Notes: a model not told the origin generated them from the sequence alone. DNA of 64,000 nucleotides from Bacteroidales bacterium (GCA_016933115.1 JAFGBL010000296.1:1170-65169); one strand, 5' to 3'; positions 6,299 to 32,421 are shown, counted from the stretch's first letter. Numbers and translations: made by a program.

Positions 6299-6943
6299 TC
6301 AGCAACCTCCTGCCGTCCCAGATTTTTTTTCCCTTTTGATGGGTATAACGTTTTCAGGTTTAACTTGCTCTGTTACAGATTTTATATTCTCCGATGTAGA
6401 TTGGTCAATAAACTCTGAAAAATTCATGACTGGCTCTTCAACAATATAATTGGGTTTATGTATGTAGTCAGCTTTTCCAGGTTCCAGTTGATGAAAAAAA
6501 TCATACCCTCCAGCAAGGACCTGTACATTATTGAAACCCAATTGCCTTAGAAACATCCATGGACCATTTGCTTCCAACTGATTTTTTCCATAAAGTATAA
6601 CATTTACAGAATTCTTTTCACTTTCTTCGAAAAATGAAAAACCATCCTCAGATAAAATCTCCGAAACCGGAATATTGATTGCATTTTCCAAATGTCCGCG
6701 GCTAAAGTCGTAAGGGTTTCGCAAATCGACCAAAAGGTATTGCTTGCCACCAGATGAAAGCATTTGTTTCATTTGCTCTGGAAGAACCGTGTTATCAGGA
6801 TTTTGAAGTTCCTTGAGCATCTCATTTTCAGAAAGACCATACTCAAATTTTGGCGGTTTCAGGGTTATAAATCCTACAACGATAATGAGGATGAAAACTA
6901 TAATAGCCCGGGTTAGCCTGTGTGTCCTGTTAATATCTTTCAT
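6299..6943 (-). CDS. Membrane-anchored rhodanese-fold protein lacking the catalytic-loop Cys, C-terminal ...REKKSGTAGGC
   Basis: N-terminal TM helix and rhodanese signatures LVDLRNPYDFSRGHLENAINIP ... VQVLAGG. The loop position reads ILYGKNQ, and the only Cys is the last residue. Confidence 0.8.
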   Translation of the reverse strand: MKDINRTHRLTRAIIVFILIIVVGFITLKPPKFEYGLSENEMLKELQNPDNTVLPEQMKQMLSSGGKQYLLVDLRNPYDFSRGHLENAINIPVSEILSEDGFSFFEESEKNSVNVILYGKNQLEANGPWMFLRQLGFNNVQVLAGGYDFFHQLEPGKADYIHKPNYIVEEPVMNFSEFIDQSTSENIKSVTEQVKPENVIPIKREKKSGTAGGC

Positions 6944-6960
6944 GCTTGATCTTTTTAAAA

Positions 6961-7578
6961 TTAACAGCCTCCTGCTGTAACTGACTTTTTTTCACGTCTT
7001 TTGATAATCACATTTTCTGTTGAATTTTCAGTATTGGTTTCGATATTTGCTCCGCCCCCGAAATACTGGCTGGCGGCCAACCTGAATGAATACATGTCGA
7101 AATCCTGTGAAGGGGATCCAGGGGACGGAGATTTAGGTTGCATGATGGATTCAAACCAATGATTCAATCCACCTTTCAAAACATACAGATTTTTATATCC
7201 CCTCCGGGCACATAAAATCCAGGCCTGGTCTGCCCACAAGTCACCATTTGAATAAAGGACAATCTCCAGATCATTCCTGTTAAGATACCCTTCATTGTCA
7301 ATTAACAACACTTGTTCCAATGGAATATTGATTGCTCCGGGTAAGGCATATTCCCCGTACTGAGCAGCAGGCCTGACATCTACCAGTAAAATGGAAGGAT
7401 CCTTTTCAATTAAGCGGTGTGCTACCAGGTCAGTGCTAAGATATCTTGAGGAATTATTTATTTCCATTAAAAGCTTTTCGGGATCCAACTCTTTTTGATT
7501 CTTTTTTTCCGGCAGGAATACAAGAACCGCCGCACCCAATATGGCAACAATAGTTAATAATATGTATGTCCTCGACAT
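6961..7578 (-). CDS. Membrane-anchored rhodanese-fold protein lacking the catalytic-loop Cys, C-terminal ...REKKSVTAGGC
   Basis: N-terminal TM helix and LVDVRPAAQYGEYALPGAINIP ... YVLKGG. The loop reads VLYSNGD, and the tail is the same as in 6299..6943. Confidence 0.8.
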   Translation of the reverse strand: MSRTYILLTIVAILGAAVLVFLPEKKNQKELDPEKLLMEINNSSRYLSTDLVAHRLIEKDPSILLVDVRPAAQYGEYALPGAINIPLEQVLLIDNEGYLNRNDLEIVLYSNGDLWADQAWILCARRGYKNLYVLKGGLNHWFESIMQPKSPSPGSPSQDFDMYSFRLAASQYFGGGANIETNTENSTENVIIKRREKKSVTAGGC

Positions 7579-7592
7579 GTGTTTTCCGTTTT

Positions 7593-8183
7593 TTAATAGT
7601 TAACTTCCTTGATCCTTCGTCCGATAAGACTGGTTACATAAAATGCTGCCAATGCCATAACCGCAAAAAGGAAAATAAATAAGTTATCCGAAATTCCCAA
7701 TGATTCAGTAACTTTTACCGAGCCCAGGTAATTTCCATTGTATAAACCTTCCCAAACCGGATAACCTTCACTGAATATAAAAATTCCCAGCATCAATCCT
7801 ATGGTAAATATGATACCATCAATTTTTCCAATGGCAACTGCACATAAACTGGTACCTGGGCAAAAACCTCCTGTAATAAATCCCAATCCCATTATAAGAC
7901 CACCTACGATCGCAGCTGTTAGATAAGTTGGATGAATGTAAGCAAGCGACATGTCAATCCATCCGACATAACTGAAGTATGCCAGTCCCACTGCAGTCGT
8001 CACGGCAGCAGTAAAAAAAACTCTTAATACCGTAAAATCATAACCATAAAACAATCCGACAATCTTTCTTGAAGATGAAAAGCCTGAACTTTCCAAAACA
8101 AATCCAAATGCTACTCCGATCAGAACCGCCATTACACTGTTCCATTGATCCGGAATGATACCCATTGGAATTAAAGGTCCCAT
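7593..8183 (-). CDS. YeeE/YedE-family sulfur-compound transporter, C-terminal-type half
   Basis: Polytopic, with the GGFCPGTS motif. The ORF is open to 8240, but MGPLIP at 8183 avoids overlap with the upstream half. Confidence 0.75.
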   Translation of the reverse strand: MGPLIPMGIIPDQWNSVMAVLIGVAFGFVLESSGFSSSRKIVGLFYGYDFTVLRVFFTAAVTTAVGLAYFSYVGWIDMSLAYIHPTYLTAAIVGGLIMGLGFITGGFCPGTSLCAVAIGKIDGIIFTIGLMLGIFIFSEGYPVWEGLYNGNYLGSVKVTESLGISDNLFIFLFAVMALAAFYVTSLIGRRIKEVNY

Positions 8184-8202
8184 AATATTAAGTTTAAATT
8201 TC

Positions 8203-8751
8203 CTAAATCCATAATTTTCTGAAAAACCATGCAAAAGCATAGGCTGAACCGAATATAGCCAGCATTGTCAGGAATCCCCCCAACGATAACACAGCAGCAC
8301 CCGACAGGGCTGCACCACTTGTACAACCGCGTGCCACCTGTGCACCAAATCCAAATAGCACACCTCCAATTCCCGCAAACAATAACCGCCTTTTGTTTGT
8401 AATTTTAGGATTGTGTTCGGTTTTGAGTTTCAACCTTCCTGAAATCGCTCCTGATAAAAATGCGCCGGCCAATACTCCTATGACTTCAAAAACAAGCCAG
8501 GTATTCAATGGATGGTTATCATCGCTGAGAAACTGACTGTAATAACCTGAATTTTCAGCATGTTCCGGTGCAAACCTGTCAACAACAGCGACAACCGTAC
8601 TTTTCGCTGCACCACTGGCCCCCAATCCCCTGCCTGTTATATAAAAAGTAGCAAGCAATACCATACCCAGAAGTACCCCTCCAAAATAGGGATTAAAATA
8701 TACCTTACTGCGATCTTTGTGATTCGTATCCATGTTTAGTAAAATTTTCAA
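8203..8751 (-). CDS. YeeE/YedE-family sulfur-compound transporter, N-terminal-type half
   Basis: Polytopic, with the ARGCTSGAALSG motif. There is a 4-nt overlap with the upstream NrfD gene. Confidence 0.75.
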   Translation of the reverse strand: MKILLNMDTNHKDRSKVYFNPYFGGVLLGMVLLATFYITGRGLGASGAAKSTVVAVVDRFAPEHAENSGYYSQFLSDDNHPLNTWLVFEVIGVLAGAFLSGAISGRLKLKTEHNPKITNKRRLLFAGIGGVLFGFGAQVARGCTSGAALSGAAVLSLGGFLTMLAIFGSAYAFAWFFRKLWI

Positions 8752-9689
8752 TATAAATACCTGGTTAACTGTCCGGCTTCAACCATAATAAACCTGAAGA
8801 CCAATCCTCCCATTAAAATAAGTATTGCTGGAATGGCAATCGGAACCTTATATCCTGACAACTCCATGATTTCAAGAATAGCAGGGAAAACAAGGCCTAA
8901 AATGATAACGAAAACCCAGAATGAAACGGTGAAATCTCCACCAAGAAACAAGCCGGCTGCTTCAAGTTGAACGGTGGGTCCTGCCAGGAAACCCATGATC
9001 ATATGAGTGATCAGAAAAAGCTCTATGCCAATGAGTACAAGGTCAATTTTACCCAAGGTTTTTCTTTCCGTATGATTTTTCGACATCCACATGGTGGTTG
9101 CCACACCTGTCGACATTCCCGAAATCAGGAATAGCGGACCGAGTATTGCATTGTTCCACAATGGCCGTGCATTAAATGCCGATAACAAAATCCCGGTATA
9201 AATCCCCAAAATCAAGGAAAAAACCATCATTACCCAGGCAATTGGTCTGCGATTGCTATTCACCCATTTTTCAAAAGAATTGAGATAACCAAATTTCCAG
9301 TTCCATTGTGGGATAATATCTTTTATATAAGCAGCAACCCAAATGATGGATAAGGGAGTAATGAACATCAACACCCATGCACCCCACGACATTGGCGATT
9401 CAAGCCTGATGGTAGTATATAACTGCCAGAAAAAAAGTTTATGTTTCAAGTCGAGAAACAAGGCAATCAAACCCAGGATCAAAACTCCGGGGACTAAAAA
9501 TGTCGCCCATTTCACAGTGGTTTCCATTTCCTTTTCCTTGCCCATCACAGTGAACAATCCGGCAAAAAAGAGGATTCCGGCCGCCAACCCGCCAAGGAAC
9601 AGGTAAATCGGGATTTGCCAATGCCATATATTTAAGTAAGGATCAATATTGGGGATATCCCTGCCGCTAACGAATAATTCTTCTCTCAT
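8748..9689 (-). CDS. NrfD/PsrC-family quinol-oxidising membrane anchor of a molybdoenzyme
   Basis: A 313-aa protein with about 8 TM segments, placed directly after the 4Fe-4S subunit in the canonical ABC order. Confidence 0.8.
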   Translation of the reverse strand: MREELFVSGRDIPNIDPYLNIWHWQIPIYLFLGGLAAGILFFAGLFTVMGKEKEMETTVKWATFLVPGVLILGLIALFLDLKHKLFFWQLYTTIRLESPMSWGAWVLMFITPLSIIWVAAYIKDIIPQWNWKFGYLNSFEKWVNSNRRPIAWVMMVFSLILGIYTGILLSAFNARPLWNNAILGPLFLISGMSTGVATTMWMSKNHTERKTLGKIDLVLIGIELFLITHMIMGFLAGPTVQLEAAGLFLGGDFTVSFWVFVIILGLVFPAILEIMELSGYKVPIAIPAILILMGGLVFRFIMVEAGQLTRYLY

Positions 9690-9705: not shown

Positions 9706-10239
9706 TTAGGTTAGAAAATAAATTTGCGGGTTTGTTCCTGCTTCCGGAGCAAGCACCTTAAATTTCCTGTGTTTTAATACCTGCGAAACATCGCTATAAG
9801 GATCATCCAGGTCGCCAAAATAGAGGCATTTAGTCGGACAAACAGCCACACAGGCAGGTTGATCCCCTTTTTTAACCCTGTGTTCACAAAAGGTACATTT
9901 ATCCACGTATCCATCTGGATGTGAGTAACGCGCATCGTACGGACAAGATTGAATACAGGCACCGCAACCGATACACTTTTCGTGCGTAACCAGGACAATC
10001 CCGCCTTCTACGATATGGCTTGCACCGGTCGGACAGCAACGCACACAGGGTGAATTATCGCAATGGTTACATCTTTCAGATCGCAATTCAATTTCAACAT
10101 TGGGGTAAGTTCCGTCAACGTTTTCAACAATCCAGTCGCGGCAGTAACCAATTGGAACATTATTTTCAGTCTGACAGGCGACGACACAATCGCTGCAACC
10201 TACACATTTTTTAGTATCAACTGCCATTGCATATCTCAT
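9706..10239 (-). CDS. 4Fe-4S dicluster electron-transfer subunit (PsrB/PhsB-like)
   Basis: Multiple CxxCxxCxxxCP ferredoxin motifs (CVGCSDCVVAC, CIGCGACIQSCP, CTFCEHR...CVAVCP). ATGA overlap with the catalytic subunit. Confidence 0.9.
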   Translation of the reverse strand: MRYAMAVDTKKCVGCSDCVVACQTENNVPIGYCRDWIVENVDGTYPNVEIELRSERCNHCDNSPCVRCCPTGASHIVEGGIVLVTHEKCIGCGACIQSCPYDARYSHPDGYVDKCTFCEHRVKKGDQPACVAVCPTKCLYFGDLDDPYSDVSQVLKHRKFKVLAPEAGTNPQIYFLT

Positions 10240-12485
10240 GACTCAACCTCCTTCACCGGTTTTTCAGTTAAAAATGTAATAAAATTACCTCTCATGCCTG
10301 TTCCTCCCATAATCGGATCCACCATCACATGAGTGATCATTTCACTATCGCTGGCCCCTTTGCCGTAAGCCCTTGATAGTAACTTATCAGAATGTCCGAA
10401 ACCATGAACCATATAAACCGAATCCCAGCGGATCCTTTCAGTTATCCTCACTTTAATTGGAAAAGTCGTAACCACATCATCCTGGTTTTTTAGCCAAACA
10501 TTTTGACCTGTTTTCAAACCCCACAATTTCGCTACTTTGGGATTGACCCAAACAGAATTTTCCTTCATCAGGTCAGTCAGGTTTGGATTATTGGCGGTCC
10601 GGCTAAAAGTATGCATCGGAGCGCGGCCATAGATCAGCCTGTAAAAACCTGCAGGAGGTTCCGGATGTTGCTTAAACACAGGCATCGGGTCAAAATTCTC
10701 GGCGGCCAGTTCATTGGAAAATAGTTCTATTTTACCTGATGGCGTGTTGAATTCAACATCTTCGCCCCTGGTGTAATAAAGGTTTCCGCCTTTCCTATCT
10801 AATTTTTTCACACCGATTTTTTGCATTTCCTCTAGCGAAGACCCGACCTGTTTCAACTGCCAATCGAGTAATTCTGTAATATCATTATAGGGGAAATAAT
10901 CGCCAAGTCCCATTTTCTCAGCCAGTTTTTTGGCAATCCACCAACCGGGCTTGGAATTATATTTTGGTTCAACTGCCGGCATTCTCAAAGCCAGGTATGG
11001 ATCCCTATGTGGTGAAGTACGAACCAGGTCATAGCGCTCAAGGTAAGTACATTCGGGAAAAATCACATCGGCATAACCGGTTATTTCCATTGGCATGGTA
11101 TCAATCACGACCATAAATTCGAGGTGTGAAATTGCTTCGAGGGTATTTTGCATATTCGGCAGGGTTAATGGCAAATTGGTGCCGTATACGATCCATGCCT
11201 TAAAAGAGCAGTCCCTGTTGCTGGTTGGGATGGTGGCATCGCATATTCCGGATGCAAGGGCCAGGGTAGCCAGTTTGAATTGCCCGGGATATGCATCTCT
11301 CCAGGTTCTTCTTGGTTTTGGGAAAGGTGGATGCTCGATACTGGGCAGATGAGCACTTTCTTTCAAATAAAATCCTCCCCTGCTTCCCCAGGATCCCAAC
11401 AAGGCATTCAAAATTGCAGCTGCCCTCACCCTTTGGGTATCATCTCCGTACCAGGTAACATGACGACCGGGGTGAACAATGACTGCGGGTGCGGCTTCTG
11501 CCATTTCACGGGCAGTTTTTCTAATCACATCCGGTTTGATAGTAGTTTTGCCATAAGCCCATTCAGGTGTCATGTTTTTTACATGATCCTTCAATAAATC
11601 AAAACCATAGGTGTATTGTCCTACAAAGTACTTGTTGTATATATCCTCATAAATCAGAACATGGATCCAGGCAAGCAACAAGGCCAGGTCGGTTGCCGGT
11701 TTGATGGGTAGCCAGTATTTTGATTTGCTTGCTGCTGTTGAAAATCTGGGATCAACTGTGATGATGGTTGCCCCTTTGTCAATGGCATCCGACATTTCCT
11801 GAACCTGCCCGTTATGCATATTTTCACCGATGTGTGAGCCGATCAAAACCAGGCAACGGGTATCCCTGATATCGGTAGGTTCGGGAGATCCAACTTCCTC
11901 TCCATAAGTGGCAATCCAGGCGGTTTCCCTTGGGCCGCGACATTGCGCAAACGATGGTGCTGCAATATTGTTTGATCCAAACCCTTTCAGGAGATCACCA
12001 AAATATTTTCCACCTGATCCATGATTAAATAGGGCAATACATTCAGGCCCGTGCTTTTCACCAACTTCCTTTAATTTTTTGGCCGTGTATTCAAGCGCTT
12101 CATCCCAACTGGCTTCCCTGAAAGTTTGTTTCCCATCTTTTTCAACCCTGATTAATGGGGTCTTTAAACGATCCTGATCGTAATACATCCCCGGCCCGCC
12201 TGTTCCCCTCGGGCATAACCTACCGTTACAATGAGGATCCTCTTCGTTACCAACAACCTTGACAATCTCATTATTTTCATTTACATATGTCCAACCGGCG
12301 CATTTCCAAAAGCAGATTTCACAGTATGTTGGAAAACGTTTTAAGTTATGGCCCCTAAATTCCAGGGGTTTTTTGTCTGCTGCGAATAATTTATTTCCTC
12401 CCATCAGGTTATAGGAGGATGCCGCAACAGCAGCACCACCCAAGCCCAGAGCCGATATTTTAATAAAATCCCTTCGATTACTCAT
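10236..12485 (-). CDS. Tat-exported molybdopterin (Mo-bisPGD) oxidoreductase catalytic subunit, polysulfide/thiosulfate-reductase type (PsrA/PhsA-like)
   Basis: Twin-arginine signal MSNRRDFIKISALGLGGAAVAA, N-terminal FeS motif CEICFWKC...CNGRLCPRG and the molybdopterin domain. The start is set at MSNRR rather than ORF start 12536. Confidence 0.85.
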   Translation of the reverse strand: MSNRRDFIKISALGLGGAAVAASSYNLMGGNKLFAADKKPLEFRGHNLKRFPTYCEICFWKCAGWTYVNENNEIVKVVGNEEDPHCNGRLCPRGTGGPGMYYDQDRLKTPLIRVEKDGKQTFREASWDEALEYTAKKLKEVGEKHGPECIALFNHGSGGKYFGDLLKGFGSNNIAAPSFAQCRGPRETAWIATYGEEVGSPEPTDIRDTRCLVLIGSHIGENMHNGQVQEMSDAIDKGATIITVDPRFSTAASKSKYWLPIKPATDLALLLAWIHVLIYEDIYNKYFVGQYTYGFDLLKDHVKNMTPEWAYGKTTIKPDVIRKTAREMAEAAPAVIVHPGRHVTWYGDDTQRVRAAAILNALLGSWGSRGGFYLKESAHLPSIEHPPFPKPRRTWRDAYPGQFKLATLALASGICDATIPTSNRDCSFKAWIVYGTNLPLTLPNMQNTLEAISHLEFMVVIDTMPMEITGYADVIFPECTYLERYDLVRTSPHRDPYLALRMPAVEPKYNSKPGWWIAKKLAEKMGLGDYFPYNDITELLDWQLKQVGSSLEEMQKIGVKKLDRKGGNLYYTRGEDVEFNTPSGKIELFSNELAAENFDPMPVFKQHPEPPAGFYRLIYGRAPMHTFSRTANNPNLTDLMKENSVWVNPKVAKLWGLKTGQNVWLKNQDDVVTTFPIKVRITERIRWDSVYMVHGFGHSDKLLSRAYGKGASDSEMITHVMVDPIMGGTGMRGNFITFLTEKPVKEVES

Positions 12486-12514
12486 ACATCGAAATTTCTT
12501 TATATATAAAAAAG

Positions 12515-12522
12515 CAAATATA
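12515..12522 (-). promoter_or_regulatory. Candidate Bacteroidota -7 promoter box for the 7-gene sulfur operon
   Basis: Reads TATATTTG (TAnnTTTG) on the minus strand, 29 nt upstream of the psrA-like ATG. Confidence 0.4.
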
Positions 12523-12739
12523 TACTGCAGATACAACCTGTTTTTTAATTAACAATGGGAATTGCTCATTATAATTACTGTTCTATATCAGTTTTTTTTA
12601 CGTCAAATTGATGATAAACATTTTAAGTAACTGATAAAGAGTTTAATTTGGTGATTTTCTGCTTGAAAAAGTATAATTCTGAAAAAAACAAGTTACATTT
12701 TGGCAGATTATCTGAAATTTGTAAAACCAATTGTTTGAT

Positions 12740-13144
12740 ATGAGTGAAAATAAAAATGGAATATCACGCAGGAATTTTTTAAAGTGGCTGGGCTGGCTGA
12801 TGGCAATTCCATATGTTTTTATTACGGGTATATCCATTAAAAGGAATAATCAAATCAATTCAAAAAAAACTGTACGAACCTCTTCGAATATTGCCGCCGG
12901 GGTAACCTTTTCCGGGCAGGTGATCCTTGTAAAAAACAATGCCTCGGTCCATATTTTTTCATCCAGATGCACCCATTTGGGTTGCAGGATTAATTCCCTT
13001 GAAAATGACGAAATTGTTTGTCCATGCCACGGGTCGAGGTTCGATTTGGAAGGCAATTGCATTAAAGGGCCGGCGAATAAACCGCTCAAAAAATTTAAAT
13101 TTGAATTGGATTCAGTTCGGGATGAATATGTCATTGAACTTTGA
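12740..13144 (+). CDS. Tat-exported Rieske [2Fe-2S] protein
   Basis: [10 protein letters not shown] twin-arginine motif, and Rieske boxes CTHLGC and CPCHGS. ATG at 12740, with an alternative TTG at 12731. Confidence 0.85.
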
Positions 13145-13172
13145 TGGCACTATTTAACAGGAAGGCTATTAA

Positions 13173-15992
13173 TTGAGACTATTAAACAAAATAAAATCTT
13201 TCATTTTTTTTGATACCTATGGCGCGATTGCTACCGTATCTTTTTTAATTTGTGCCATTTCAGGGATTGTTCTTGCCATCCCATTCGATATTCAAAATCC
13301 TTATGAATCAATATCCATTATTTTAATTGCCAATCCTGCTGCCAATTTCTTCAGGAATATCCACTACTGGAGTGCTCAGTTTTTCCTCATGTTCTCAGTC
13401 CTGCACATTTGGGATCACTTAAAAATGAGAACCGAAAAAAATCAAACCAAAGGAATCTGGTTCAGGCTAAGTCTTTCTGTACCTGTTATTTTCTTTGTTA
13501 TGATTTCGGGGTTTATCCTGAAAGCCGACCCTGATAGCATACAAGCCCGAAGAATAATTTCAACCCTGATTTCAAAAATACCGTTATTTGGAAATTCACT
13601 GGCTTACGGACTTTTTGGATCTGAGGGGGATTACCAAATCATTTATGTACAACACATTGCGACTGCAACAATTTTTTTGGCTATTGTTATTTGGGAACAT
13701 GCCCACACTTTGTGGACCAGGTTATCTACCTTTATCATCATTCTGGCCGTACTTACTGTTTTGGGACTTATTTTGCATGCCCCACTTCACAATGGATTAA
13801 GTCCCGTGGTAAAAGGTCCCTGGTACTTTGTCGGTTTGCAGGAAATTTTGCATTGGATCAGCAATACGGGAATAGTCCTGATATTTATATTGATTCTAAT
13901 TCTTTCTTTTTACGCCCTTATTTATCTAGGTAAAAAATCATCGTTAATATTAAAAAGGGGATTTCTTTATCTTTTTTATGTCTATATCCTTTTAACCGTC
14001 ATCGGTTATTTTTTCAGGGGTGAAAACTGGTCGTGGGAAAAACCCTGGGAAGGAAAGTACGTCCAGGGAGATCCTTTCCGAACCGGTTTGTATATTCCGG
14101 ATATTAGTTTAGATACCTTAACGAAAGAAGATTTGCCACAAGCCGGTGAACGCAGGGAAGCCTGTATGGCTTGTCATAAAAATGTTTTGGGATTTGCCAA
14201 AGCCCATGATCCCCAGGCAATCGGGTGTGCCTCCTGCCATTTGGGCGATCCCTTTAGCCTGAATAAAAACCGGGCACATCGCAATATGGTTCTTATTCCG
14301 GGTAACCTTGCAAATGCCCGTCAAACCTGTGGAAGTGTGCAATGCCATCCTGAAATTGTACCCCGTGTAATGAATTCTTTAATGACATCTAACAGTGGCA
14401 TTGTGAGTGTTGACCGATTTGTTTTCGAAGAAACCGGTTCGCCCGATATCCAATCTCATATTAAGGATATTGGACACTCAGCTGCTGATCAACACCTCCG
14501 AAATTTATGTGCAAATTGCCACCTGGGGAAAGAAAAAACAGAACCCGGTCCCGTGAACCAGCTTTCCAGAGGCGGTGGTTGTATCGCCTGCCATCTCAAT
14601 TATTCGAACTCGGCTACAACACAACACATGGCTTATATCTCAGGGTTAAAAAATGAAAAATTACTTCCTAAGGTTCATGCTTCATTGGATATTAATATTT
14701 CCAACGATCACTGTTTTGGTTGCCACAGCCGCTCAGGAAGGATTTCCACCAATTACCAAGGTTGGCACGAAACACTGCTGGACGAAAAGGTTGTTGTTGG
14801 GAAAGAAGGATACAGGGTACTCGAAGATAAAAGAGTGTTTGAGTTTGTGGCTGAAGATGTGCATCATAAAGCCGGAATGGATTGTATCGATTGCCACAAT
14901 TCCTATGAGGTTATGGGGGATGGAACGATCTATCTGCATGAGGAACAAGCTGTAAAAATCCGTTGTGAAGATTGCCATTTAACTGAAAGGCCACACATGT
15001 CAAATTACGATCAACTGGATGCGGAATCCAGAAAAATATTCGATCTCAGAAAATTCGAACACCAGGATAAGCCTATGATTAGGGAAAAGGAATCGATGAT
15101 AACCTTGATCAATACTTTTTATGAAAATGATACCGCTTTTATGATTGGGAAAAACAGCGGGAAATTGCACATTATGAATCCTCCACCTTCAATCTGTACT
15201 CGGGTGGCCCATGAAAGCCTTACCTGCAGTGCTTGTCATACAGCCTGGGCACCGCAATGCATCGGTTGTCATAATGTTTATGATAAAAAGGCTGACGGAT
15301 ATGACCTGCTTACAGATAAACCGCTGACCGGTACCTGGGTTGAATATGTAGGCAAATTTCTGGCTGAACCACCGACTTTGGGTGTTTGGCAAGGAGAACG
15401 GAATCAAATAAGTCCGGCAATACCGGGGATGATTCTTACGATTGATAATAACTCCTATTCTGATGACTTTGAGATATCGGATGAATTAAAAATGATTTTT
15501 CACCGTCTTTTTGCACCGGCAACTCCACATACCACAAATTCGAAAGGCCGTGATTGCAAATCGTGCCACAACGATCCGCTGGCCATCGGGTATGGCCGCG
15601 GTGAATTGATTTACAGCATCGACCTTTTAGGTTTGCATCAGCCAGAAGCCAAAGCTAATCTAACAGGACATTCTGCAAAAAAAGGATACTGGACCTTCCA
15701 ACCGAAATATGCTGCCAATAAATATGATGGTTTACCGGAAGATGCCTGGATAGCATTTGATCCTTATTCATCCGAAGAACTGCGGTCATCGGACAGTACA
15801 ATGAGTGCTACCCGCCTCAATTTCAGGCCGTTCACAAAAGAAGAACAGCGAAGGATATTGCGCGTTGGTGCCTGTCTTTCCTGTCATGATGAAAATTCGG
15901 AGATCATGTTAAAAAGCCTGGATGGGGAATTTAAATCCTACCTGGAAACCATCAACGACAAATGCATCCTTCCTGACTGGAATCCATATTAA
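13173..15992 (+). CDS. Cytochrome b6/subunit-IV-like membrane domain fused to a periplasmic multihaem (about 12 haem) cytochrome c
   Basis: About 7 TM helices. Haem-b ligands are H-x13-H (HYWSAQFFLMFSVLH) and H-x14-H (HIATATIFLAIVIWEH). The Qo PEWY-equivalent is KGPWYFVGLQEIL. These are followed by 11 CxxCH motifs plus one CGSVQCH (Cx4CH). Confidence 0.8.
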   Translation: MRLLNKIKSFIFFDTYGAIATVSFLICAISGIVLAIPFDIQNPYESISIILIANPAANFFRNIHYWSAQFFLMFSVLHIWDHLKMRTEKNQTKGIWFRLSLSVPVIFFVMISGFILKADPDSIQARRIISTLISKIPLFGNSLAYGLFGSEGDYQIIYVQHIATATIFLAIVIWEHAHTLWTRLSTFIIILAVLTVLGLILHAPLHNGLSPVVKGPWYFVGLQEILHWISNTGIVLIFILILILSFYALIYLGKKSSLILKRGFLYLFYVYILLTVIGYFFRGENWSWEKPWEGKYVQGDPFRTGLYIPDISLDTLTKEDLPQAGERREACMACHKNVLGFAKAHDPQAIGCASCHLGDPFSLNKNRAHRNMVLIPGNLANARQTCGSVQCHPEIVPRVMNSLMTSNSGIVSVDRFVFEETGSPDIQSHIKDIGHSAADQHLRNLCANCHLGKEKTEPGPVNQLSRGGGCIACHLNYSNSATTQHMAYISGLKNEKLLPKVHASLDINISNDHCFGCHSRSGRISTNYQGWHETLLDEKVVVGKEGYRVLEDKRVFEFVAEDVHHKAGMDCIDCHNSYEVMGDGTIYLHEEQAVKIRCEDCHLTERPHMSNYDQLDAESRKIFDLRKFEHQDKPMIREKESMITLINTFYENDTAFMIGKNSGKLHIMNPPPSICTRVAHESLTCSACHTAWAPQCIGCHNVYDKKADGYDLLTDKPLTGTWVEYVGKFLAEPPTLGVWQGERNQISPAIPGMILTIDNNSYSDDFEISDELKMIFHRLFAPATPHTTNSKGRDCKSCHNDPLAIGYGRGELIYSIDLLGLHQPEAKANLTGHSAKKGYWTFQPKYAANKYDGLPEDAWIAFDPYSSEELRSSDSTMSATRLNFRPFTKEEQRRILRVGACLSCHDENSEIMLKSLDGEFKSYLETINDKCILPDWNPY

Positions 15993-16537: not shown

Positions 16538-16726
16538 TTATGGTATAATGGGGATGTTCAGCGATTTACAAATTTTTTTAACCAACATATTAGGAATTTC
16601 AACATGGCGGGGAATGGCTTCAATATGACCAGTATTAGGATTGCACCACAAAGAATGGCCGGCTCCCTCTCTTTTTAGATAGCATCCATTCCTCCTAAGG
16701 TGCTTAATGAGGTCTTTTCTTTTCAC
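16538..16726 (-). CDS. hicA: Type II toxin HicA (mRNA interferase)
   Basis: A 62-aa protein with LIKHLRRNGCYLKREGAGHSLW...IPRH...I, typical of the HicA/YcfA family. It overlaps hicB by 4 nt. Confidence 0.85.
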   Translation of the reverse strand: MKRKDLIKHLRRNGCYLKREGAGHSLWCNPNTGHIEAIPRHVEIPNMLVKKICKSLNIPIIP

Positions 16727-16947
16727 TCAACGATCAGTGTTTCACGGGATACTTCGTCTGAAATGCCCCTTAATGAGTCCTCCCGGCGATCTTCCAAAAT
16801 CAGCTCAATGGCTTGCGACAAACTTTTCATTGACTCTTCCTTTGTTTTACCCTGCCCATTGGCACCTGGAATTTCGGCACACCAGGAAATATACCAATCG
16901 TTATCTTTTTCGATAATTGCTGTGAATTCGTTCCGCATAAATTTCAT
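16723..16947 (-). CDS. hicB: Type II antitoxin HicB
   Basis: A 74-aa protein with FTAIIEKDNDWYISWCAEIPGANGQGKTKEES, the HicB N-terminal RNase-H-like fold signature. Confidence 0.8.
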   Translation of the reverse strand: MKFMRNEFTAIIEKDNDWYISWCAEIPGANGQGKTKEESMKSLSQAIELILEDRREDSLRGISDEVSRETLIVE

Positions 16948-17035: not shown

Positions 17036-17665
17036 ATGCCTGAATGCGCCGAATGCGGAGGATTCACAAAATATAATGGAGGTCTCTGTTATAACTGTTA
17101 TTAAAAACAAAACGGAAACAAAGACAATGGTAAGAAAACCATAGTAGAAGAAATACCGGAAGAGAATGAGAATTACGGATTGAGTAAGAAAGAAAGGAAT
17201 TACCTGTAGGCATGATCAAAGGTCGGATTGCTGAAACGTTGACACAGGAATTATTTTTTAGCCTGGGCTATATGTTTTTCGTTATGGGATGGAGAACACC
17301 ATTCCCGGCATTATGGAACTGTTAAAAGGAGTACGCTCGCATGCAGCGCATGAAATCCGCCGCATGCCCGATTTTGTAATTCAGGACCCGAAAAAAAAAC
17401 TGTATATTTTGTGGAGGCGAAGTTCAGGGCAAGTGGTGAATTCAGGTTAAAAGATATTCCCAAAGATTACCCTTAAGAAAATACCTATTTCATCCTTGTA
17501 TCAAAAAAGTACATCAAGTGTATCAACTACCAGGAATTGAAGGAAAGAAAAGAAATAACACCTACATCCCGGAACTATCGTGGAAACCGCAAAGAATTCG
17601 ACCCTGACAAACAGGTGATCATTGAGTTTTTTGAAATTGAGGTTCAGTTTTCTGAGAGTGTTTAG
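17036..17665 (+). pseudogene. Decayed zinc-ribbon + PD-(D/E)XK nuclease-fold gene
   Basis: The reading can be followed as MPECAECGG..CYNCY* ... GRIAETLTQELFFSLGY / YGMENTIPGIMELLKGVRS..RRMPDFVIQD / VEAKFRASGEF..DYP*ENTYFILVSKKY. This is possible only by changing frame at least 3 times and passing several stops. Confidence 0.7.
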
Positions 17666-18848
17666 AAAACACTTCTAACCATTCCCTGGCTTCGATCATC
17701 ATGTTAGAAAAACTGATAACCGGGTGGCGTAAAAAAACTTTTGGTTTGGGCATGGCTTCGATCATGACGGGAAGGGCGGTGAAGGCCAGACCAAGTGTGG
17801 CATAAATTTTATCGAATCCTGTCCTAAATAGGAAATCACGGATCACCGGATTACGAAGCTCAACACTAAATGAAGAAAAAGCAATAACGATAAACAAAGC
17901 CCGCAGGTTCATTTCCAGCCCGATCAGCAACCCTTCGGTATTGAATAACGATTCACGGTTGCTGAAGCCGTTCCAAAAAATGGCTGCCAGGAAGGTCAGC
18001 AAAATCAATTGTCCCCAGAAAACCGGTTTTTTCAGCCTCCGCAACGAACGCTTGTAATGAAGGATACAAAACCCTGAATAACCAAGGATAAACACCATGC
18101 CATAAACCAGATGAAGGTAGTTCAGCAGGAGAAGACCGGTGGGGATAAGAATAATATGTATGATAAAGAGCCCAACCGAAAACCGTTGATTTGGGTCGAT
18201 GGCCAGGAGGTTGATTTTATCGACGATTTCAGGCGCAAAACCATGTGATTGATAAGCCCGGTTTCTCGATTTTTTCCCGATATAAAAACCCGTCAATGCC
18301 GCTGTGATCCCGAAGAACAGGTAAACTGCGACCACCACGATCACCAACATCCAGGGATTGGGATGTTCGATCCGCACCTGTTTTGCCAACCAGTTGAAGA
18401 TGTCGACATAAAGTTTCACAATGTTAAATCCGTATAGGATGATGAGGCTTACCACCTTGTGGATGAAGGCACTGGAAACACTCAATGCACCGGCGAAGGA
18501 AAGGGAAACCGGGTTATTACCGAAAGCCCGAATAAAGAATTCAACCAACAATGCTTCAATCATGATTCCGATCATAGGCCCCAGGATGATGGCACTGGGT
18601 GAAACCGATTTCATCAGGGCAGTGATGAGGCCGGCACGCCATATCAGCCCTTTTTGGGGCCACATCTGGTAAAAGGCGATCATCAGGATGGTGCCGTTGG
18701 CAGCCAGGATTGTGCCGGCAAATGGCAACCGAAGGTTGTGAAAAAAACTACCGATAATGATCTCAACCGAGGCCCATAAACCACCCAAAACAGCAGCTTT
18801 CAACCAAACCGGATTTAATTTCAAATATCCATCCATTTGCTCAGTCAT
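17619..18848 (-). CDS. Polytopic membrane protein of unknown function, translationally coupled to mobA
   Basis: A 409-aa protein with about 10 hydrophobic segments. Its start overlaps the mobA stop by 8 nt. I do not recognise the family. Confidence 0.6.
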   Translation of the reverse strand: MTEQMDGYLKLNPVWLKAAVLGGLWASVEIIIGSFFHNLRLPFAGTILAANGTILMIAFYQMWPQKGLIWRAGLITALMKSVSPSAIILGPMIGIMIEALLVEFFIRAFGNNPVSLSFAGALSVSSAFIHKVVSLIILYGFNIVKLYVDIFNWLAKQVRIEHPNPWMLVIVVVAVYLFFGITAALTGFYIGKKSRNRAYQSHGFAPEIVDKINLLAIDPNQRFSVGLFIIHIILIPTGLLLLNYLHLVYGMVFILGYSGFCILHYKRSLRRLKKPVFWGQLILLTFLAAIFWNGFSNRESLFNTEGLLIGLEMNLRALFIVIAFSSFSVELRNPVIRDFLFRTGFDKIYATLGLAFTALPVMIEAMPKPKVFLRHPVISFSNMMIEAREWLEVFSKHSQKTEPQFQKTQ

Positions 18849-19449
18849 GCTTCTTTTTGCTTCTCAACCTTTGCTCAATTCGATCAAGGTCATCCGCAGA
18901 ATTGATGTTATAAAACAGGTCTTTATGAGACCATGTGAGCTCTGAATCTATAACGACATACCTGGTATTCAGCAAATTTAAAACATCCTGGATTTTGTAA
19001 TCTCCTTTTTCGATGCTGTACTTTATCTTCGGGATTGTCCTTTTGTGATACAAAGCACATAGCGGTTCGGGTAATCCTTCAAAGAGGGGCACAATGGCAT
19101 CAGGATTGCCCGGCTGTTCAATAATAAACCGCACAAGTTCAACGGTGATTAAAGGCATATCGCAGGAAAGGACGATGTTTCGATCGGTTGAGCTTGCCTG
19201 CAAACACGAATAAATTCCGCCAATCGGCCCGATTCCTTTAAAATGGTCAGGAACTACAGGTATTCCAAATGTTTCATAATTGTTATCATTGGTTCCGATC
19301 AATAAAGCATCGCAAGCTATTTTTAAAATTCGAATTACATATTTCACCAACGGTTCATTGTTCAGGAGGCATAAACCTTTATCCTTGCCCATTCGCGAGC
19401 TTTTGCCTCCACACAGGATGATTCCAGTTATTTGATCGTTATTACTCAA
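18841..19449 (-). CDS. mobA: Molybdenum cofactor guanylyltransferase
   Basis: The N-terminal GIILCGGKSSRMGKDKGL motif and a size of 202 aa. Confidence 0.85.
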   Translation of the reverse strand: MSNNDQITGIILCGGKSSRMGKDKGLCLLNNEPLVKYVIRILKIACDALLIGTNDNNYETFGIPVVPDHFKGIGPIGGIYSCLQASSTDRNIVLSCDMPLITVELVRFIIEQPGNPDAIVPLFEGLPEPLCALYHKRTIPKIKYSIEKGDYKIQDVLNLLNTRYVVIDSELTWSHKDLFYNINSADDLDRIEQRLRSKKKHD

Positions 19450-29585: not shown

Positions 29586-30287
29586 ATGGCAGAGAACAAA
29601 ATTGCTCTTGATACGAGTTGTGTGGTTGAAAACCAGCATATTAATTGTTTTGATCAGCTAACTGATGAAGAAAAAAAGATAATTGCTGAACATACCGTCA
29701 ACATAAAATATAAAAAGGGCGAAATCATTGCCAAACAGGGTTCTTTTGCCTCGCACGTAATCCTGCTGAACGAAGGGCTGGTGAAAATCTACCTGGAAGG
29801 AAATCCAAAAGACCTGATCATTAAGATCATTCCATCCAACCACCTGATCACGCTCTCTTCCATTTACGAAGGGAACAATACCTTTATCTATTCAGCCGCA
29901 ACATATTTGGATACCACAGCCAGCTTGATCGATGCCGATATTTTCAAACAATTGATCCGTAAAAATTCAAAATTTGCCGCCAAAATCATCAACATCCTGA
30001 ATGAAAATACGGCGCAACTTTACCACCGGTTCTATTCCCTCACCCGAAAGCAGTCGCATGGCCGGGTTGCTGATATTTTGCTATGTTTATCTCAAGGCGT
30101 ATACAAATCGGCACAATTTAACCTGGCATTATCCAGGAACGACCTGGCCGACCTTACAGGGCTTTCGCCCGAAAGCGTGATCCGGATATTTAAGGAGTTC
30201 AAAGAAGAAAAACTGATTGATGTACATGGCAAAACCATTAATATCATAGATTTTAGTGTCTTGGAAAGGATCAGCCTCTATGGATAA
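29586..30287 (+). CDS. Crp/Fnr-family transcriptional regulator
   Basis: A cNMP-binding beta-roll followed by the C-terminal HTH SRNDLADLTGLSPESVIRIFKEF. Confidence 0.85.
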   Translation: MAENKIALDTSCVVENQHINCFDQLTDEEKKIIAEHTVNIKYKKGEIIAKQGSFASHVILLNEGLVKIYLEGNPKDLIIKIIPSNHLITLSSIYEGNNTFIYSAATYLDTTASLIDADIFKQLIRKNSKFAAKIINILNENTAQLYHRFYSLTRKQSHGRVADILLCLSQGVYKSAQFNLALSRNDLADLTGLSPESVIRIFKEFKEEKLIDVHGKTINIIDFSVLERISLYG

Positions 30288-30455
30288 TGTGATTCCATAA
30301 AGTGGTTTCACAAAGAATTTCGATAAATCTTTTCGATCAGACATAATCAAAGACATTTCTTAGCGAATTTTTTAATATGCTTACCTTTAGATTTAATTGC
30401 ATAATACATCTATTTTTTATATATTTGTTTCAAAATCCCTAAAAATGAACAAGTC

Positions 30456-30674
30456 ATGAAAATGGTTTTGGCTAATCTTGCAATTCTTTTTGGAGCTATC
30501 GGTTTTGTAGGTTATCTTTTCCTGATAATCGCCAGTGCATTCGGTTGTTGTGCAGGTCTTACTTCCCTGGGTTATCAAAAGGTGATTATGGGAATACTGG
30601 CAATTGCCGTAATGATTTTTGGAATTTGCATGTTTAACAACTGTAGTAAAATCAGGAAAAAAACCAACGACTGA
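30456..30674 (+). CDS. Small two-TM membrane protein
   Basis: A 72-aa protein with two hydrophobic helices and a basic tail. Confidence 0.4.
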   Translation: MKMVLANLAILFGAIGFVGYLFLIIASAFGCCAGLTSLGYQKVIMGILAIAVMIFGICMFNNCSKIRKKTND

Positions 30675-30780
30675 TCCTCTTTACCGTTAGGCTTAAAACA
30701 AATATTTTCCATTACTTTTTGGAATTCAACCATAATCTCATTTGTTAACCGCAATATGATTAATTTTGAAAACGAAAAAT

Positions 30781-31548: not shown

Positions 31549-31575
31549 ATTATTTTTCAGGTATCTTTGCAAGCC

Positions 31576-32421
31576 ATGCAAGAGACGATTTCCAATAAGA
31601 AAAAAAATCAGCCGCCACCCGAAAAGGAAATGTCCTTCTGGGAGCACCTTGAAGAGTTGCGCGGTCATATTTTCAGGTCGCTTGCTGTTATTCTTGTTTT
31701 TGCTATAGCTGCTTTCATAGCCAAAAAGTACATATTCGATTATGTGATACTGGCTCCCAAAGATGCCGATTTCCTCACCAACCGGTTGCTTTGTAAGCTT
31801 GGCGATTTATTATCGGTTGAAGCCTTGTGTATCGGCCGGATGGATTTGAATATCCAGAACATCAACATGTCAGGTCAATTTATGACCCATATGTATGTTT
31901 CGTTGTTTGCAGGATTGATTGTAGCCGCACCCTACGTCATTTGGGAATTATGGCGTTTTATTATGCCCGCTTTGCATCCAAAGGAAAAAAAATATTCCCA
32001 GGGAGCGGTATTTGTTAGTTCACTCTTATTTCTGCTGGGAGTTCTTTTTGCCTATTTTTTAATTGTTCCGCTTACTATTAATTTTCTGGGTACTTACCAG
32101 GTAAGTGAGGATGTTCCAAACCAAATCCAGCTAAATTCCTTCATCAGCACAATTATTTCGGTAACCATCGCGGTGGGTATTGTTTTTGAGCTCCCGATCC
32201 TGGTGTTTTTCCTTACGAAAGTCGGATTGGTGACACCTGCATTTTTAAAGAAAAACCGGAAATATATGCTTGTCATCGTATTGATCATTTCAGCGATTAT
32301 CACACCTCCGGACGTCTTTAGCCAAATATTAGTTTGTATTCCGCTGCTTGGCCTATATGAGATAAGTATTTCCATTGCCAAAAGGGTTTATAAAAAAAGG
32401 GAATCAAACCTGGCAGGATAA
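31576..32421 (+). CDS. tatC: Twin-arginine translocase subunit TatC
   Basis: MSFWEHLEELRGHIFRSL and six TM segments. ATG at 31576. Confidence 0.9.
   Translation: MQETISNKKKNQPPPEKEMSFWEHLEELRGHIFRSLAVILVFAIAAFIAKKYIFDYVILAPKDADFLTNRLLCKLGDLLSVEALCIGRMDLNIQNINMSGQFMTHMYVSLFAGLIVAAPYVIWELWRFIMPALHPKEKKYSQGAVFVSSLLFLLGVLFAYFLIVPLTINFLGTYQVSEDVPNQIQLNSFISTIISVTIAVGIVFELPILVFFLTKVGLVTPAFLKKNRKYMLVIVLIISAIITPPDVFSQILVCIPLLGLYEISISIAKRVYKKRESNLAG

Follow-up and report, generated by a model that had tools for sequence, protein, structure and literature searches.

In Geobacter sulfurreducens, the extHIJKLMNOPQS cluster contains a complex named Cbc6 or CbcMNOPQR, which is the same as ExtMNOPQS (GSU2930-2935) and whose members include the 12-haem cytochrome ExtM, the Rieske protein ExtO (14 kDa), the cytochrome b ExtP (23 kDa) and the membrane protein ExtQ (17 kDa) (PMC5877670; PMC2825233). 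Butler et al. compared six Geobacter genomes, and the complex is conserved in all of them (PMC2825233); its role "remains unknown" according to a 2026 review (PMC13591261), and the cluster also encodes the rhodanese ExtH and the porin ExtI, a phosphate-porin-like outer-membrane protein (OMP) (PMC5877670). Cytochromes b from Deltaproteobacteria, Ignavibacteria and Nitrospinae were grouped by Kao & Hunte in 2014 as a "GPWY clade", paired with Rieske proteins bearing mid+ to high-potential signatures, and the one from Ignavibacterium album (YP_005846642) was described as "fused to a triheme cytochrome c7 domain" (PMC4122944); according to its genome paper, I. album has no cytochrome b-Rieske complex (PMC3362086). 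A b-type cytochrome is also combined or fused with a periplasmic multihaem cytochrome c in Geobacter CbcL and in complexes of Kuenenia (bioRxiv 10.1101/2021.04.15.440034; PMC12954380). Here we analyse a stretch of 64,000 nucleotides (nt) from a Bacteroidales bacterium (GCA_016933115.1 JAFGBL010000296.1:1170-65169, hereafter the window), in which a Rieske gene is followed by a gene for a protein of 939 amino acids (aa) that joins a GPWY-type cytochrome b to a cytochrome c domain with 12 haem motifs, beside a divergent operon for a PsrABC-type molybdoenzyme.

The usual view is that Bacteroidota lack Rieske/cytochrome b complexes and have Alternative Complex III (ACIII) in their place. We find a bc-type complex with its own 12-haem chain in many anaerobic Bacteroidales, Lentimicrobiaceae, Prolixibacteraceae and Ignavibacteria. 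The kind has been noticed before, in the GPWY-clade complexes with multihaem cytochromes c, in Geobacter Cbc6/Ext and in the fused I. album cytochrome b. What is new is the description of 12 haems, the breadth of the family in Bacteroidota, its modular architectures (fused, fused to subunit IV only, stand-alone) and a strong but one-sided linkage to a PsrABC-YeeE-rhodanese unit, together with the presence of the stand-alone 12-haem domain inside the same type of Psr operon.

The Rieske protein and the fused cytochrome

The gene pair and the parts of the fusion protein are:

12731..13144, plus strand: Rieske [2Fe-2S] subunit, 137 aa from a TTG start, or 134 aa from an ATG at 12740
13173..15992, plus strand: open reading frame (ORF) of the cytochrome b::12-haem fusion, 939 aa, TTG start
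13173..13703, plus strand: cytochrome b6-like part, aa 1-177, helices A-D (Pfam Cytochrome_B, 6e-10)
13704..14027, plus strand: subunit-IV-like part, aa 178-285, helices E-G (NCBIfam ExtQ, 2e-4, aa 186-289)
14148..15992, plus strand: ExtM-type 12-haem cytochrome c domain, predicted periplasmic, aa 326-939 plus the stop codon

The Rieske protein matches the Pfam Rieske model (E = 8e-15), and its best NCBIfam matches are Rieske subunits of the b6f (PetC-type) and bc1 types. Its boxes CTHLGC and CPCH(GS) lie at aa 80 and aa 97 (numbered from the TTG start), and it carries a twin-arginine (Tat) signal or anchor motif, SRRNFLK, for which the Pfam TAT_signal match is sub-threshold only. The residues that follow CPCH are G-S-R-F, which gives an "S-F" signature at positions +2 and +4 after CxCH; related Rieske proteins have either S-F (50/72) or S-Y (22/72), the two signatures together accounting for 72/72. 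The ORF of 939 aa begins after a gap of 28 nt, at a TTG codon that aligns with Met1 of its homologues.

The membrane part of the fusion is a Qo-type cytochrome b both by sequence and by fold. Its two pairs of haem-b ligands, H64-x13-H78 and H161-x14-H176, align with the ligand helices of cytochrome b6, and the Qo motif, KGPWYFVGLQE at aa 214-224, includes G215-P-W-Y218 and Q223-E224. A profile search of the PDB with the family returned cytochrome b6 first (4.8e-13) and then bc1 cytochromes b, while proteins of the NarI, FdnI and HydC types were absent from the 55 PDB profile matches and from the top 50 Foldseek matches, and Pfam Ni_hydr_CYTB reached only 16.7 bits, under its cut-off of 30.1. 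The AlphaFold2 model of the 939-aa protein (predicted local distance difference test, pLDDT, 88; predicted TM-score, pTM, 0.82) has seven long helices, at aa 16-35, 55-84, 93-115, 155-177, 184-200, 232-248 and 254-280. All of the top 50 Foldseek matches of the full-length model are bc1 cytochromes b (E 1e-7 to 1e-5, target-normalised TM-scores up to about 0.58); the alignments extend over about 310-360 columns and therefore include the part equivalent to subunit IV.

Seven helices that start from an N-terminus on the inner side put the haem domain in the periplasm, a placement that agrees with the match to the cytochrome b fold and with the loop charges: between the model helices, lysine plus arginine number about 3/5/1/4 in the loops predicted to be cytoplasmic and 0/1 in the short ones predicted to be periplasmic. 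The position of Cys35 of cytochrome b6, which binds haem ci, is occupied by the invariant Gly17, so that we rejected a b6f-like reading with haem ci. A near-invariant cysteine, Cys27 (13251-13253), is found in the middle of helix A, eight residues past that position.

The haem domain contains 11 CxxCH motifs, at aa 331, 352, 446, 470, 514, 571, 598, 685, 696, 795 and 901, and one Cx4CH, CGSVQCH at aa 386. In 2000 shuffles of the C-terminal 619 aa the mean number of CxxCH was 0.06 and the maximum 3. Outside the motifs the domain has 11 conserved His, three invariant Met, an invariant cysteine (C931) and a near-invariant one (C675), and residues 693-844 are rich in beta-strands. Modelled alone from an alignment of 13 sequences, the domain gave an AlphaFold2 pLDDT of 40, and PDB searches with it found only weak local matches to NrfA (aa 555-638, E about 1e-4).

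An initial annotation, made from the sequence of the window alone, had described a Tat-signal Rieske protein of 134 aa with CTHLGC and CPCHGS, a 939-aa ORF 28 nt further on, about seven transmembrane helices with H-x13-H and H-x14-H pairs and a PEWY equivalent, and 11 CxxCH plus one Cx4CH facing the periplasm. Coordinates, motifs and motif count all agree with what we found, the PEWY equivalent being GPWY; the assignment to the Qo type, as opposed to the NarI/FdnI type, and the periplasmic position of the CxxCH region stood up equally well.

The closest named models are those of the Geobacter proteins. For the haem domain, NCBIfam ExtM is the best match (1.6e-72, aa 324-810) with 244.7 bits against a cut-off of 800; for the membrane part, ExtP is the best cytochrome b model (1.6e-10, 41.2 bits against a cut-off of 290), and ExtQ matches at 2e-4 (21.5 bits against a cut-off of 150). 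By these scores, the parts of the window protein are homologues, not equivalogs, of ExtM, ExtP and ExtQ. The NCBIfam model NF040968 ("FeS_ExtO", 416 positions) matches the haem domain at aa 679-805, as does the ExtN model, and does not match the Rieske protein of the window; its name and its content appear to disagree.

Conservation and distribution of the fusion

An identical record of the 939-aa protein exists on a 65-kb contig of a Bacteroidales metagenome-assembled genome (MAG), and we found more than 120 full-length homologues of about 890-960 aa, with 48-68% identity, in independent assemblies; full-length homologues from Ignavibacteria are 47-52% identical to the window protein. All 111 sequences of an alignment share H64, H78, H161, H176, G215 to Y218, Q223/E224 and 11 of the 12 haem-c motifs without change, and the twelfth (C598-x-x-C601-H602) varies only at C601, which is near-invariant. 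The AlphaFold2 model is confident through the junction region save for a short linker at about aa 285-300.

We scanned a species-representative set, with one genome per species, and found relatives encoded in at least 554 stretches. The best 80 of these, all covering the query nearly full length, are the related loci considered below (L numbers); they belong to Bacteroidales, Lentimicrobiaceae, Prolixibacteraceae, Melioribacteraceae, Ignavibacteria and Balneolales. Among the homologous ORFs called in these loci, 76/77 have the 12 haem motifs and 76/77 have GPWY, so the fusion, which the initial annotation had left open to being an artefact, is kept in other genomes. Cultured carriers among the relatives are Maribellus sp. 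YY47 and Draconibacterium aestuarii, and a fused homologue is also found in Rosettibacter firmus. Two expectations of the initial annotation had to be corrected: the family is not rare in Bacteroidota, as the number of stretches shows, and fusions of cytochrome b with multihaem cytochromes were already on record from beyond Deltaproteobacteria and anammox bacteria, one having been mentioned in passing for I. album (PMC4122944). From its description and from the Ignavibacteria homologues, the fused I. album cytochrome b is evidently a member of the window family whose haem count was underestimated.

Stand-alone and other forms of the 12-haem domain

The haem domain alone was searched against 1.84 billion representatives, which gave 981 cluster representatives at E <= 1e-3, including fused forms of about 900 aa and stand-alone ones of about 600-660 aa. 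The latter have one N-terminal transmembrane anchor and the same 12 haem motifs, and the best match of all is stand-alone (P0121, 53% identity). Two further architectures were seen: in P0134 a subunit-IV-like part is joined to the 12-haem domain (SUIV::12-haem), and in another the 12-haem domain stands with a different membrane part of 4-5 helices and no Qo motif. In a rough neighbour-joining distance tree the fused and stand-alone forms are interleaved, which suggests repeated fusion or fission of the 12-haem domain.

In Melioribacteraceae the stand-alone gene lies in the order mobA > 12-haem > merR > psrA > psrB > psrC > yeeE > yeeE > rhodanese, with no Rieske or cytochrome b gene within 8 kb of it, and in another genome it is the last gene of a psrABC-yeeE-yeeE-rhodanese operon. 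Stand-alone homologues that are less closely related (33-35% identity), including one from a Desulfurivibrionaceae MAG, have no Psr linkage. In Melioribacter roseus, arsenate strongly induces a Psr/Phs-type gene that has a MerR regulator gene before it (PMC5492636), and this merR-psrA arrangement matches the stand-alone loci of Melioribacteraceae; our homologue search returned no match named M. roseus, so that the tie of the stand-alone cytochrome to MROS_1772 rests on the MerR-psrA arrangement.

Linkage with a PsrABC-YeeE-rhodanese unit

Divergently from the gene pair, as the initial annotation had it, the window encodes a Psr-type operon:

12486..12730, no strand: intergenic region from which psrA and the Rieske gene diverge, presumably with the promoters of both
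10236..12536, minus strand: PsrA/PhsA-type catalytic subunit with molybdenum bis(pyranopterin guanine dinucleotide) (Mo-bisPGD) and a Tat signal, probable start ATG at 12485
9706..10239, minus strand: PsrB-type four-cluster ferredoxin subunit (best NCBIfam matches NrfC, ArrB, DsrO and TtrB, all below their cut-offs)
8748..9689, minus strand: PsrC, membrane quinol subunit of the NrfD family (NrfD, 4.5e-45)
7593..8751, minus strand: split YeeE/TsuA-like sulfur-transport protein, ORFs 8203-8751 and 7593-8240 (Sulf_transp, weak TsuA/YedE)
6299..7578, minus strand: two rhodanese-domain proteins with N-terminal anchors, 6961-7578 and 6299-6943 (Rhodanese, 5e-15 and 8e-16)

PsrA matches Thermus PsrA (2vpw) over its full length (1e-199, 668 bits) and PhsA with 3e-139 and 465 bits, below the cut-off; the arsenate reductase ArrA gave 151 bits and the tetrathionate reductase TtrA no match, and these two identities were rejected for the molybdenum subunit. 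The two YeeE ORFs overlap by 38 nt, and the one that matches the C-terminal half of the profile is encoded first. Both rhodaneses of the window end in ...TAGGC and, from a reading of their sequences, appear to lack the usual cysteine of the active-site loop. Of their homologues in the related loci 59/78 have the GGC end, and in 38 the whole protein has a single cysteine. Such a GGC tail, at the C-terminus of a rhodanese fold that is presumably periplasmic, points to a carrier arm for sulfur or selenium.

We clustered all ORFs of the 80 related loci and counted linkage in the 31 loci whose flanks reach at least 8 kb in either direction. A Rieske gene is a neighbour in 31/31 of these well-flanked loci, a rhodanese gene in 28/31, psrA in 27/31, yeeE in 25/31, mobA in 22/31 and a gene for a Crp/Fnr regulator in 19/31, and either PsrA or an OTR-family octahaem cytochrome in 29/31, counts that are not phylogenetically independent because the related loci are the closest relatives. 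Strong synteny thus speaks for the earlier suggestion that the pair may run with the neighbouring Psr-type enzyme. In 67/72 related loci a Rieske homologue lies directly 5' of the cytochrome gene. The psr unit is divergent from the Rieske/cytochrome b pair in Bacteroidales, while in Ignavibacteria/Melioribacteraceae (L027, L030, L041, L046) psr-yeeE-rhd lies downstream of the pair on the same strand; the linkage therefore survives rearrangement across two phyla.

Other genes recur in the related loci. A cytochrome of the OTR octahaem family, which scores 566 bits for TIGR04315 (above the cut-off) and has a hydrophobic segment at its C-terminus, is encoded in L023, L040, L042, L043, L056, L064, L071 and L073, mostly just upstream of the Rieske gene (for example in L040, L042, L043, L056, L064 and L073) and often with a Crp/Fnr regulator gene between. 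A Porin_O_P protein, whose sole NCBIfam match is ExtI (2e-13), is found in 14 loci, 13 of which (13/14) also have a double-rhodanese lipoprotein; this module of a GGC-type rhodanese and Porin_O_P, seen for example in L017 (about 13.2-17.0 kb), L021, L032, L036, L069 and L070, is not in the window. Also outside the window's gene content is a set of an SQR-like flavoprotein (Pyr_redox_2), DUF1641, DsrC/TusE-like and DsrE-like proteins, a cytoplasmic sulfur relay found in seven to nine loci and placed just 3' of the cytochrome gene in L001, L002, L003, L006, L008, L021 and L065.

Other genes of the window

Downstream of the cytochrome gene, two genes run on the minus strand:

18841-19449, minus strand: mobA (MobA, 9e-42)
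17619-18848, minus strand: polytopic membrane protein of 409 aa, unknown family, no Pfam match, overlapping the end of mobA by 8 nt

MobA makes the guanine-dinucleotide form of the molybdenum cofactor that PsrA-type enzymes use. The 409-aa protein gene and mobA recur as a pair in 12-13 related loci, and a role of the membrane protein in handling molybdenum or the cofactor is possible.

An otherwise ORF-poor gap of 1.6 kb 3' of the cytochrome gene is occupied by a hicA toxin gene (16538-16726, minus strand; Pfam HicA_toxin 6e-10), which follows a gene for 74 aa (16723-16947, minus strand; no Pfam match) that is probably the HicA antitoxin; at this position relatives usually have a Crp/Fnr regulator or sulfur-relay genes. 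In the window, a Crp/Fnr-family regulator (29586-30287, plus strand) and a small membrane protein (about 30414-30677, plus strand) are encoded 14 kb away; many related loci have a homologous pair immediately 5' of the Rieske gene. The tatC gene (31567-32421, plus strand; Pfam TatC 7e-68), 16 kb downstream and with a homologous ORF in 9 related loci, is relevant because the Rieske protein and PsrA both carry twin-arginine signals. Two genes for small OMP beta-barrels are neighbours of the island, both here and in the closest relatives of the window.

FNR-type boxes (TTGATN4ATCAA, at most one mismatch) number 8 in the window against 8.2 expected, with none in 12486..12730; a scan for promoter and terminator consensus sequences was at or below chance, and an Rfam scan of the whole window gave nothing at the gathering score. 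Genes for ACIII, a terminal oxidase or cytochrome c maturation were not seen within the window.

Proposed function and alternatives

We think that the pair is probably an accessory outlet by which electrons leave menaquinol for the periplasm, with conservation of energy, in sulfur, chalcogen or metalloid respiration. The 939-aa polypeptide unites an ExtP-like di-haem part, an ExtQ-like part bearing the Qo site and an ExtM-like 12-haem part, with the Tat-exported Rieske protein as second subunit. Menaquinol would be oxidised at the Qo site; the Rieske cluster would pass one electron on to the periplasmic 12-haem chain tethered to the membrane, while the b haems would take the other one back, as in a Q cycle, and the complex would in this way be an energy-conserving route from the quinone pool to the periplasm. 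The haem chain may then hand its electrons to the periplasmic reductase or reductases of the island, which comprises the PsrABC-type molybdoenzyme, the split YeeE, the two GGC-tailed rhodaneses and MobA, and to which some relatives add the OTR octahaem cytochrome or the ExtI-like porin. While the domain identities, the conservation of cofactor ligands, the topology, the reality of the fusion and the gene linkage are shown by the results above, we infer which quinol is used, which way the electrons flow, that there is a Q cycle and what the acceptor is; any wiring to extracellular acceptors would be a further step of the same kind. The S-F or S-Y signature, present in all 72 Rieske proteins, is compatible with forward operation, and has been read as the mark of a mid+ to high-potential cluster, typical of the GPWY clade (PMC4122944).

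Several observations weigh against this proposal. In a reverse test, we took 28 well-flanked metagenome loci with close relatives of PsrA (67-85% identity): PsrB, PsrC, both YeeE halves and both rhodaneses, which with PsrA make a seven-gene unit, are present in 28/28, while the Rieske/cytochrome b::12-haem pair lies within 10 kb in only 6-7/28. With no pair within 10 kb in 22/28 loci, the Psr unit does not need the complex, and it has a quinol subunit of its own, PsrC. The Psr-YeeE-rhodanese unit is thus autonomous, with the cytochrome, with or without its bc part, as an accessory beside it; the linkage is asymmetric, and the linked element is the haem domain. CxxCH occurs in no other ORF of at least 100 aa in the window, which leaves no further cytochrome c there as acceptor. 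The polysulfide and thiosulfate couples lie at about -270 and -400 mV. A Rieske centre of mid to high potential could not reduce polysulfide or thiosulfate, so that the acceptor would have to be more positive, or something else; a predicted mid- to high-potential Rieske centre beside an enzyme for very low-potential sulfur couples is a bioenergetic puzzle. Multihaem chains with bis-His ligation, moreover, are often of low potential, which would favour the opposite flow. GPWY complexes have been grouped with APWY complexes, for which reverse operation was proposed (PMC4122944), and no family member, Geobacter Cbc6 included, has been characterised (PMC13591261).

One alternative, which we hold to be unlikely, is that the complex works in reverse, the 12-haem chain taking electrons from periplasmic oxidations (of thiosulfate, sulfide or arsenite, with Psr or OTR running backwards) and passing them through the Rieske protein to menaquinone in a reversed Q cycle driven by the proton-motive force. 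The study that sets APWY and GPWY apart from PEWY and PDWY argues that APWY complexes run in reverse from a high-potential chain (PMC4122944), the mid+ to high Rieske signature would fit, and the genes for SQR-like flavoprotein, DsrE and DsrC/TusE in some related loci are typical of sulfur oxidisers too. The mode was proposed, however, for APWY and not for GPWY, and most of the carriers seen come from lineages of anaerobic or facultative heterotrophs (Bacteroidales, Lentimicrobiaceae, Ignavibacteria); among structures, PsrA is matched best by a reductase, 2vpw, the orthologous-type psr/phsA of Melioribacter roseus is induced by an electron acceptor, arsenate (PMC5492636), and neither a terminal oxidase nor another high-potential sink is linked to the pair.

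Distinctly improbable in our view is that the 12-haem domain is itself a reductase (for example of sulfite, tetrathionate, selenite or tellurite) that takes a product of the Psr/rhodanese system, or another substrate of it, with Rieske/cytochrome b or PsrBC as its quinol dehydrogenase, on the pattern of NrfA-NrfCD and SirA-SirCD. Geobacter ExtI is linked to selenite and tellurite reduction (PMC5877670). Within the family, stand-alone forms occur inside Psr operons that have no cytochrome b, the best NCBIfam matches of PsrB and PsrC are NrfC and NrfD, and the domain offers 11 conserved non-motif His for 12 haems, the cysteines C931 and C675 and a local NrfA match. That match is weak, however, and covers a generic haem-packing segment, one of the three invariant Met could supply the twelfth ligand, and there is no CxxCK or other known active-site haem motif. 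The Cx4CH, for its part, is an ordinary motif of c3-type electron-transfer cytochromes, which also counts against a catalytic role.

It is highly unlikely that the chain is a periplasm-spanning wire for extracellular electron transfer to insoluble S0, Fe(III) or Mn(IV), or to extracellular deposits of Se/Te. In Geobacter, growth on Fe(III) goes with a greater abundance of Ext proteins, with ExtM in both inner- and outer-membrane fractions (PMC5877670), and the small OMP beta-barrel genes next to the island, like the ExtI-like Porin_O_P gene of 14 related loci, would suit such a wire; yet the window holds neither an outer-membrane or extracellular multihaem cytochrome nor a porin-cytochrome pair, none recurs in the related loci, and the conserved partners are periplasmic enzymes. 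Reverse, catalytic and wire functions are each less well supported than forward operation. That an assembly error or a frameshift brought together a cytochrome b gene and a separate cytochrome c gene, as the existence of stand-alone 12-haem homologues with their own anchor might suggest, can be dismissed as next to impossible and is in effect already refuted by the conservation data, given the uninterrupted ORF, the identical protein from the 65-kb contig, more than 100 independently assembled homologues of 890-960 aa with the same architecture and a model confident at the junction apart from the linker; since stand-alone homologues do exist, both architectures are real in nature.

If electrons do leave menaquinol in the forward direction, the gene context suggests tetrathionate (from the OTR cytochrome in eight loci), arsenate (from the induced MerR-preceded gene of M. 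roseus) and selenite or tellurite as candidate acceptors. A Psr-like selenite reductase, Srr, has rhodanese partners (PMC12481199), and the related Geobacter cluster is tied to selenite and tellurite reduction through ExtI (PMC5877670). We also entertain, as a speculative and rather doubtful extension, that the ExtM-type cytochrome with PsrABC, split YeeE and two GGC-rhodaneses forms an undescribed chalcogen or metalloid respiratory system of Bacteroidota and Ignavibacteriota, a counterpart of Geobacter Ext/Cbc6 in which a haem wire would join a Q-cycle quinol oxidase to the molybdenum enzyme. Its acceptors would then be tetrathionate or polysulfide, As(V) and Se(IV)/Te(IV), and the reductase could be driven either through PsrC or by the energy-conserving bc route. 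Because there are cultured carriers and natural "deletion variants" (the stand-alone 12-haem forms in Melioribacteraceae), the question is experimentally approachable.

Comparison with known systems

Several known systems share parts of this arrangement. In NrfABCD, SirACD/MccACD, ACIII and Qrc, quinol modules of the NrfD/NrfC type feed multihaem cytochromes; in the window, likewise, PsrC (NrfD family) plus PsrB is encoded beside a multihaem cytochrome tethered to the membrane, and in the stand-alone 12-haem variants PsrC plus PsrB is the only visible quinol-interacting module. These systems have no Rieske/cytochrome b, whereas here a catalytic PsrA close to that of Thermus is present too. The window has no ActA or ActE cytochrome of ACIII, since it encodes no further cytochrome c, and PsrA is a genuine Psr/Phs-type catalytic subunit.

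CbcL and the anammox complexes, likened here by their descriptions, also link quinol to the periplasm by a b-type cytochrome and a multihaem cytochrome c. CbcL, however, has a di-haem b of the HydC/FdnI type with no Rieske protein or Qo motif, and the anammox Rieske/cytochrome b complexes have extra NAD(P)/FAD or HAO-like subunits.

With the b6f complex and the QcrABC complex of Firmicutes, the window protein shares the H-x13-H and H-x14-H spacing and the 4+3 helices of b6 plus subunit IV, and its best sequence match among solved structures is cytochrome b6. In the Bacillus bc complex, subunit IV is fused to a c-type cytochrome, an arrangement that P0134 resembles. Our protein differs in having Gly17 for the haem-ci cysteine, GPWY for PEWY or PDWY, and 12 haems where the others have cytochrome f or a mono- or di-haem cytochrome, all three parts being one polypeptide.

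The I. album protein likewise has GPWY, a C-terminal c-type fusion and a Rieske protein of the mid+ to high class, and comes from the same Fibrobacteres-Chlorobi-Bacteroidetes (FCB) lineage. It was described as triheme, whereas the family considered here has 12 conserved haem motifs, and the paper reports neither gene context nor Bacteroidota members (PMC4122944).

Geobacter Cbc6 has the same components: its Rieske protein is of about 14 kDa, its cytochrome b is b6-like, a small membrane protein resembles subunit IV, and the cytochrome c has 12 haems. Its cluster also encodes a rhodanese and a porin, for which the related Bacteroidota loci have the ExtI-like porin and the double-rhodanese lipoprotein; ExtH and ExtI are thus paralleled by the GGC-rhodanese/Porin_O_P module of these loci. 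The components are four separate proteins in Geobacter but one fused polypeptide plus the Rieske protein here. ExtN (10 haems), ExtS and the selenocysteine cytochrome ExtKL, all part of the Geobacter cluster, have no counterpart in the window, and that cluster in turn lacks PsrABC and YeeE. Two His pairs, a cytochrome b fold, a variant Qo motif and an adjacent Rieske gene with CxHxGC and CxCH are all found in the pair, which by sequence we assign to the "GPWY clade" of Rieske/cytochrome b complexes, with Geobacter ExtM, ExtP and ExtQ (Cbc6) as its nearest named relatives.

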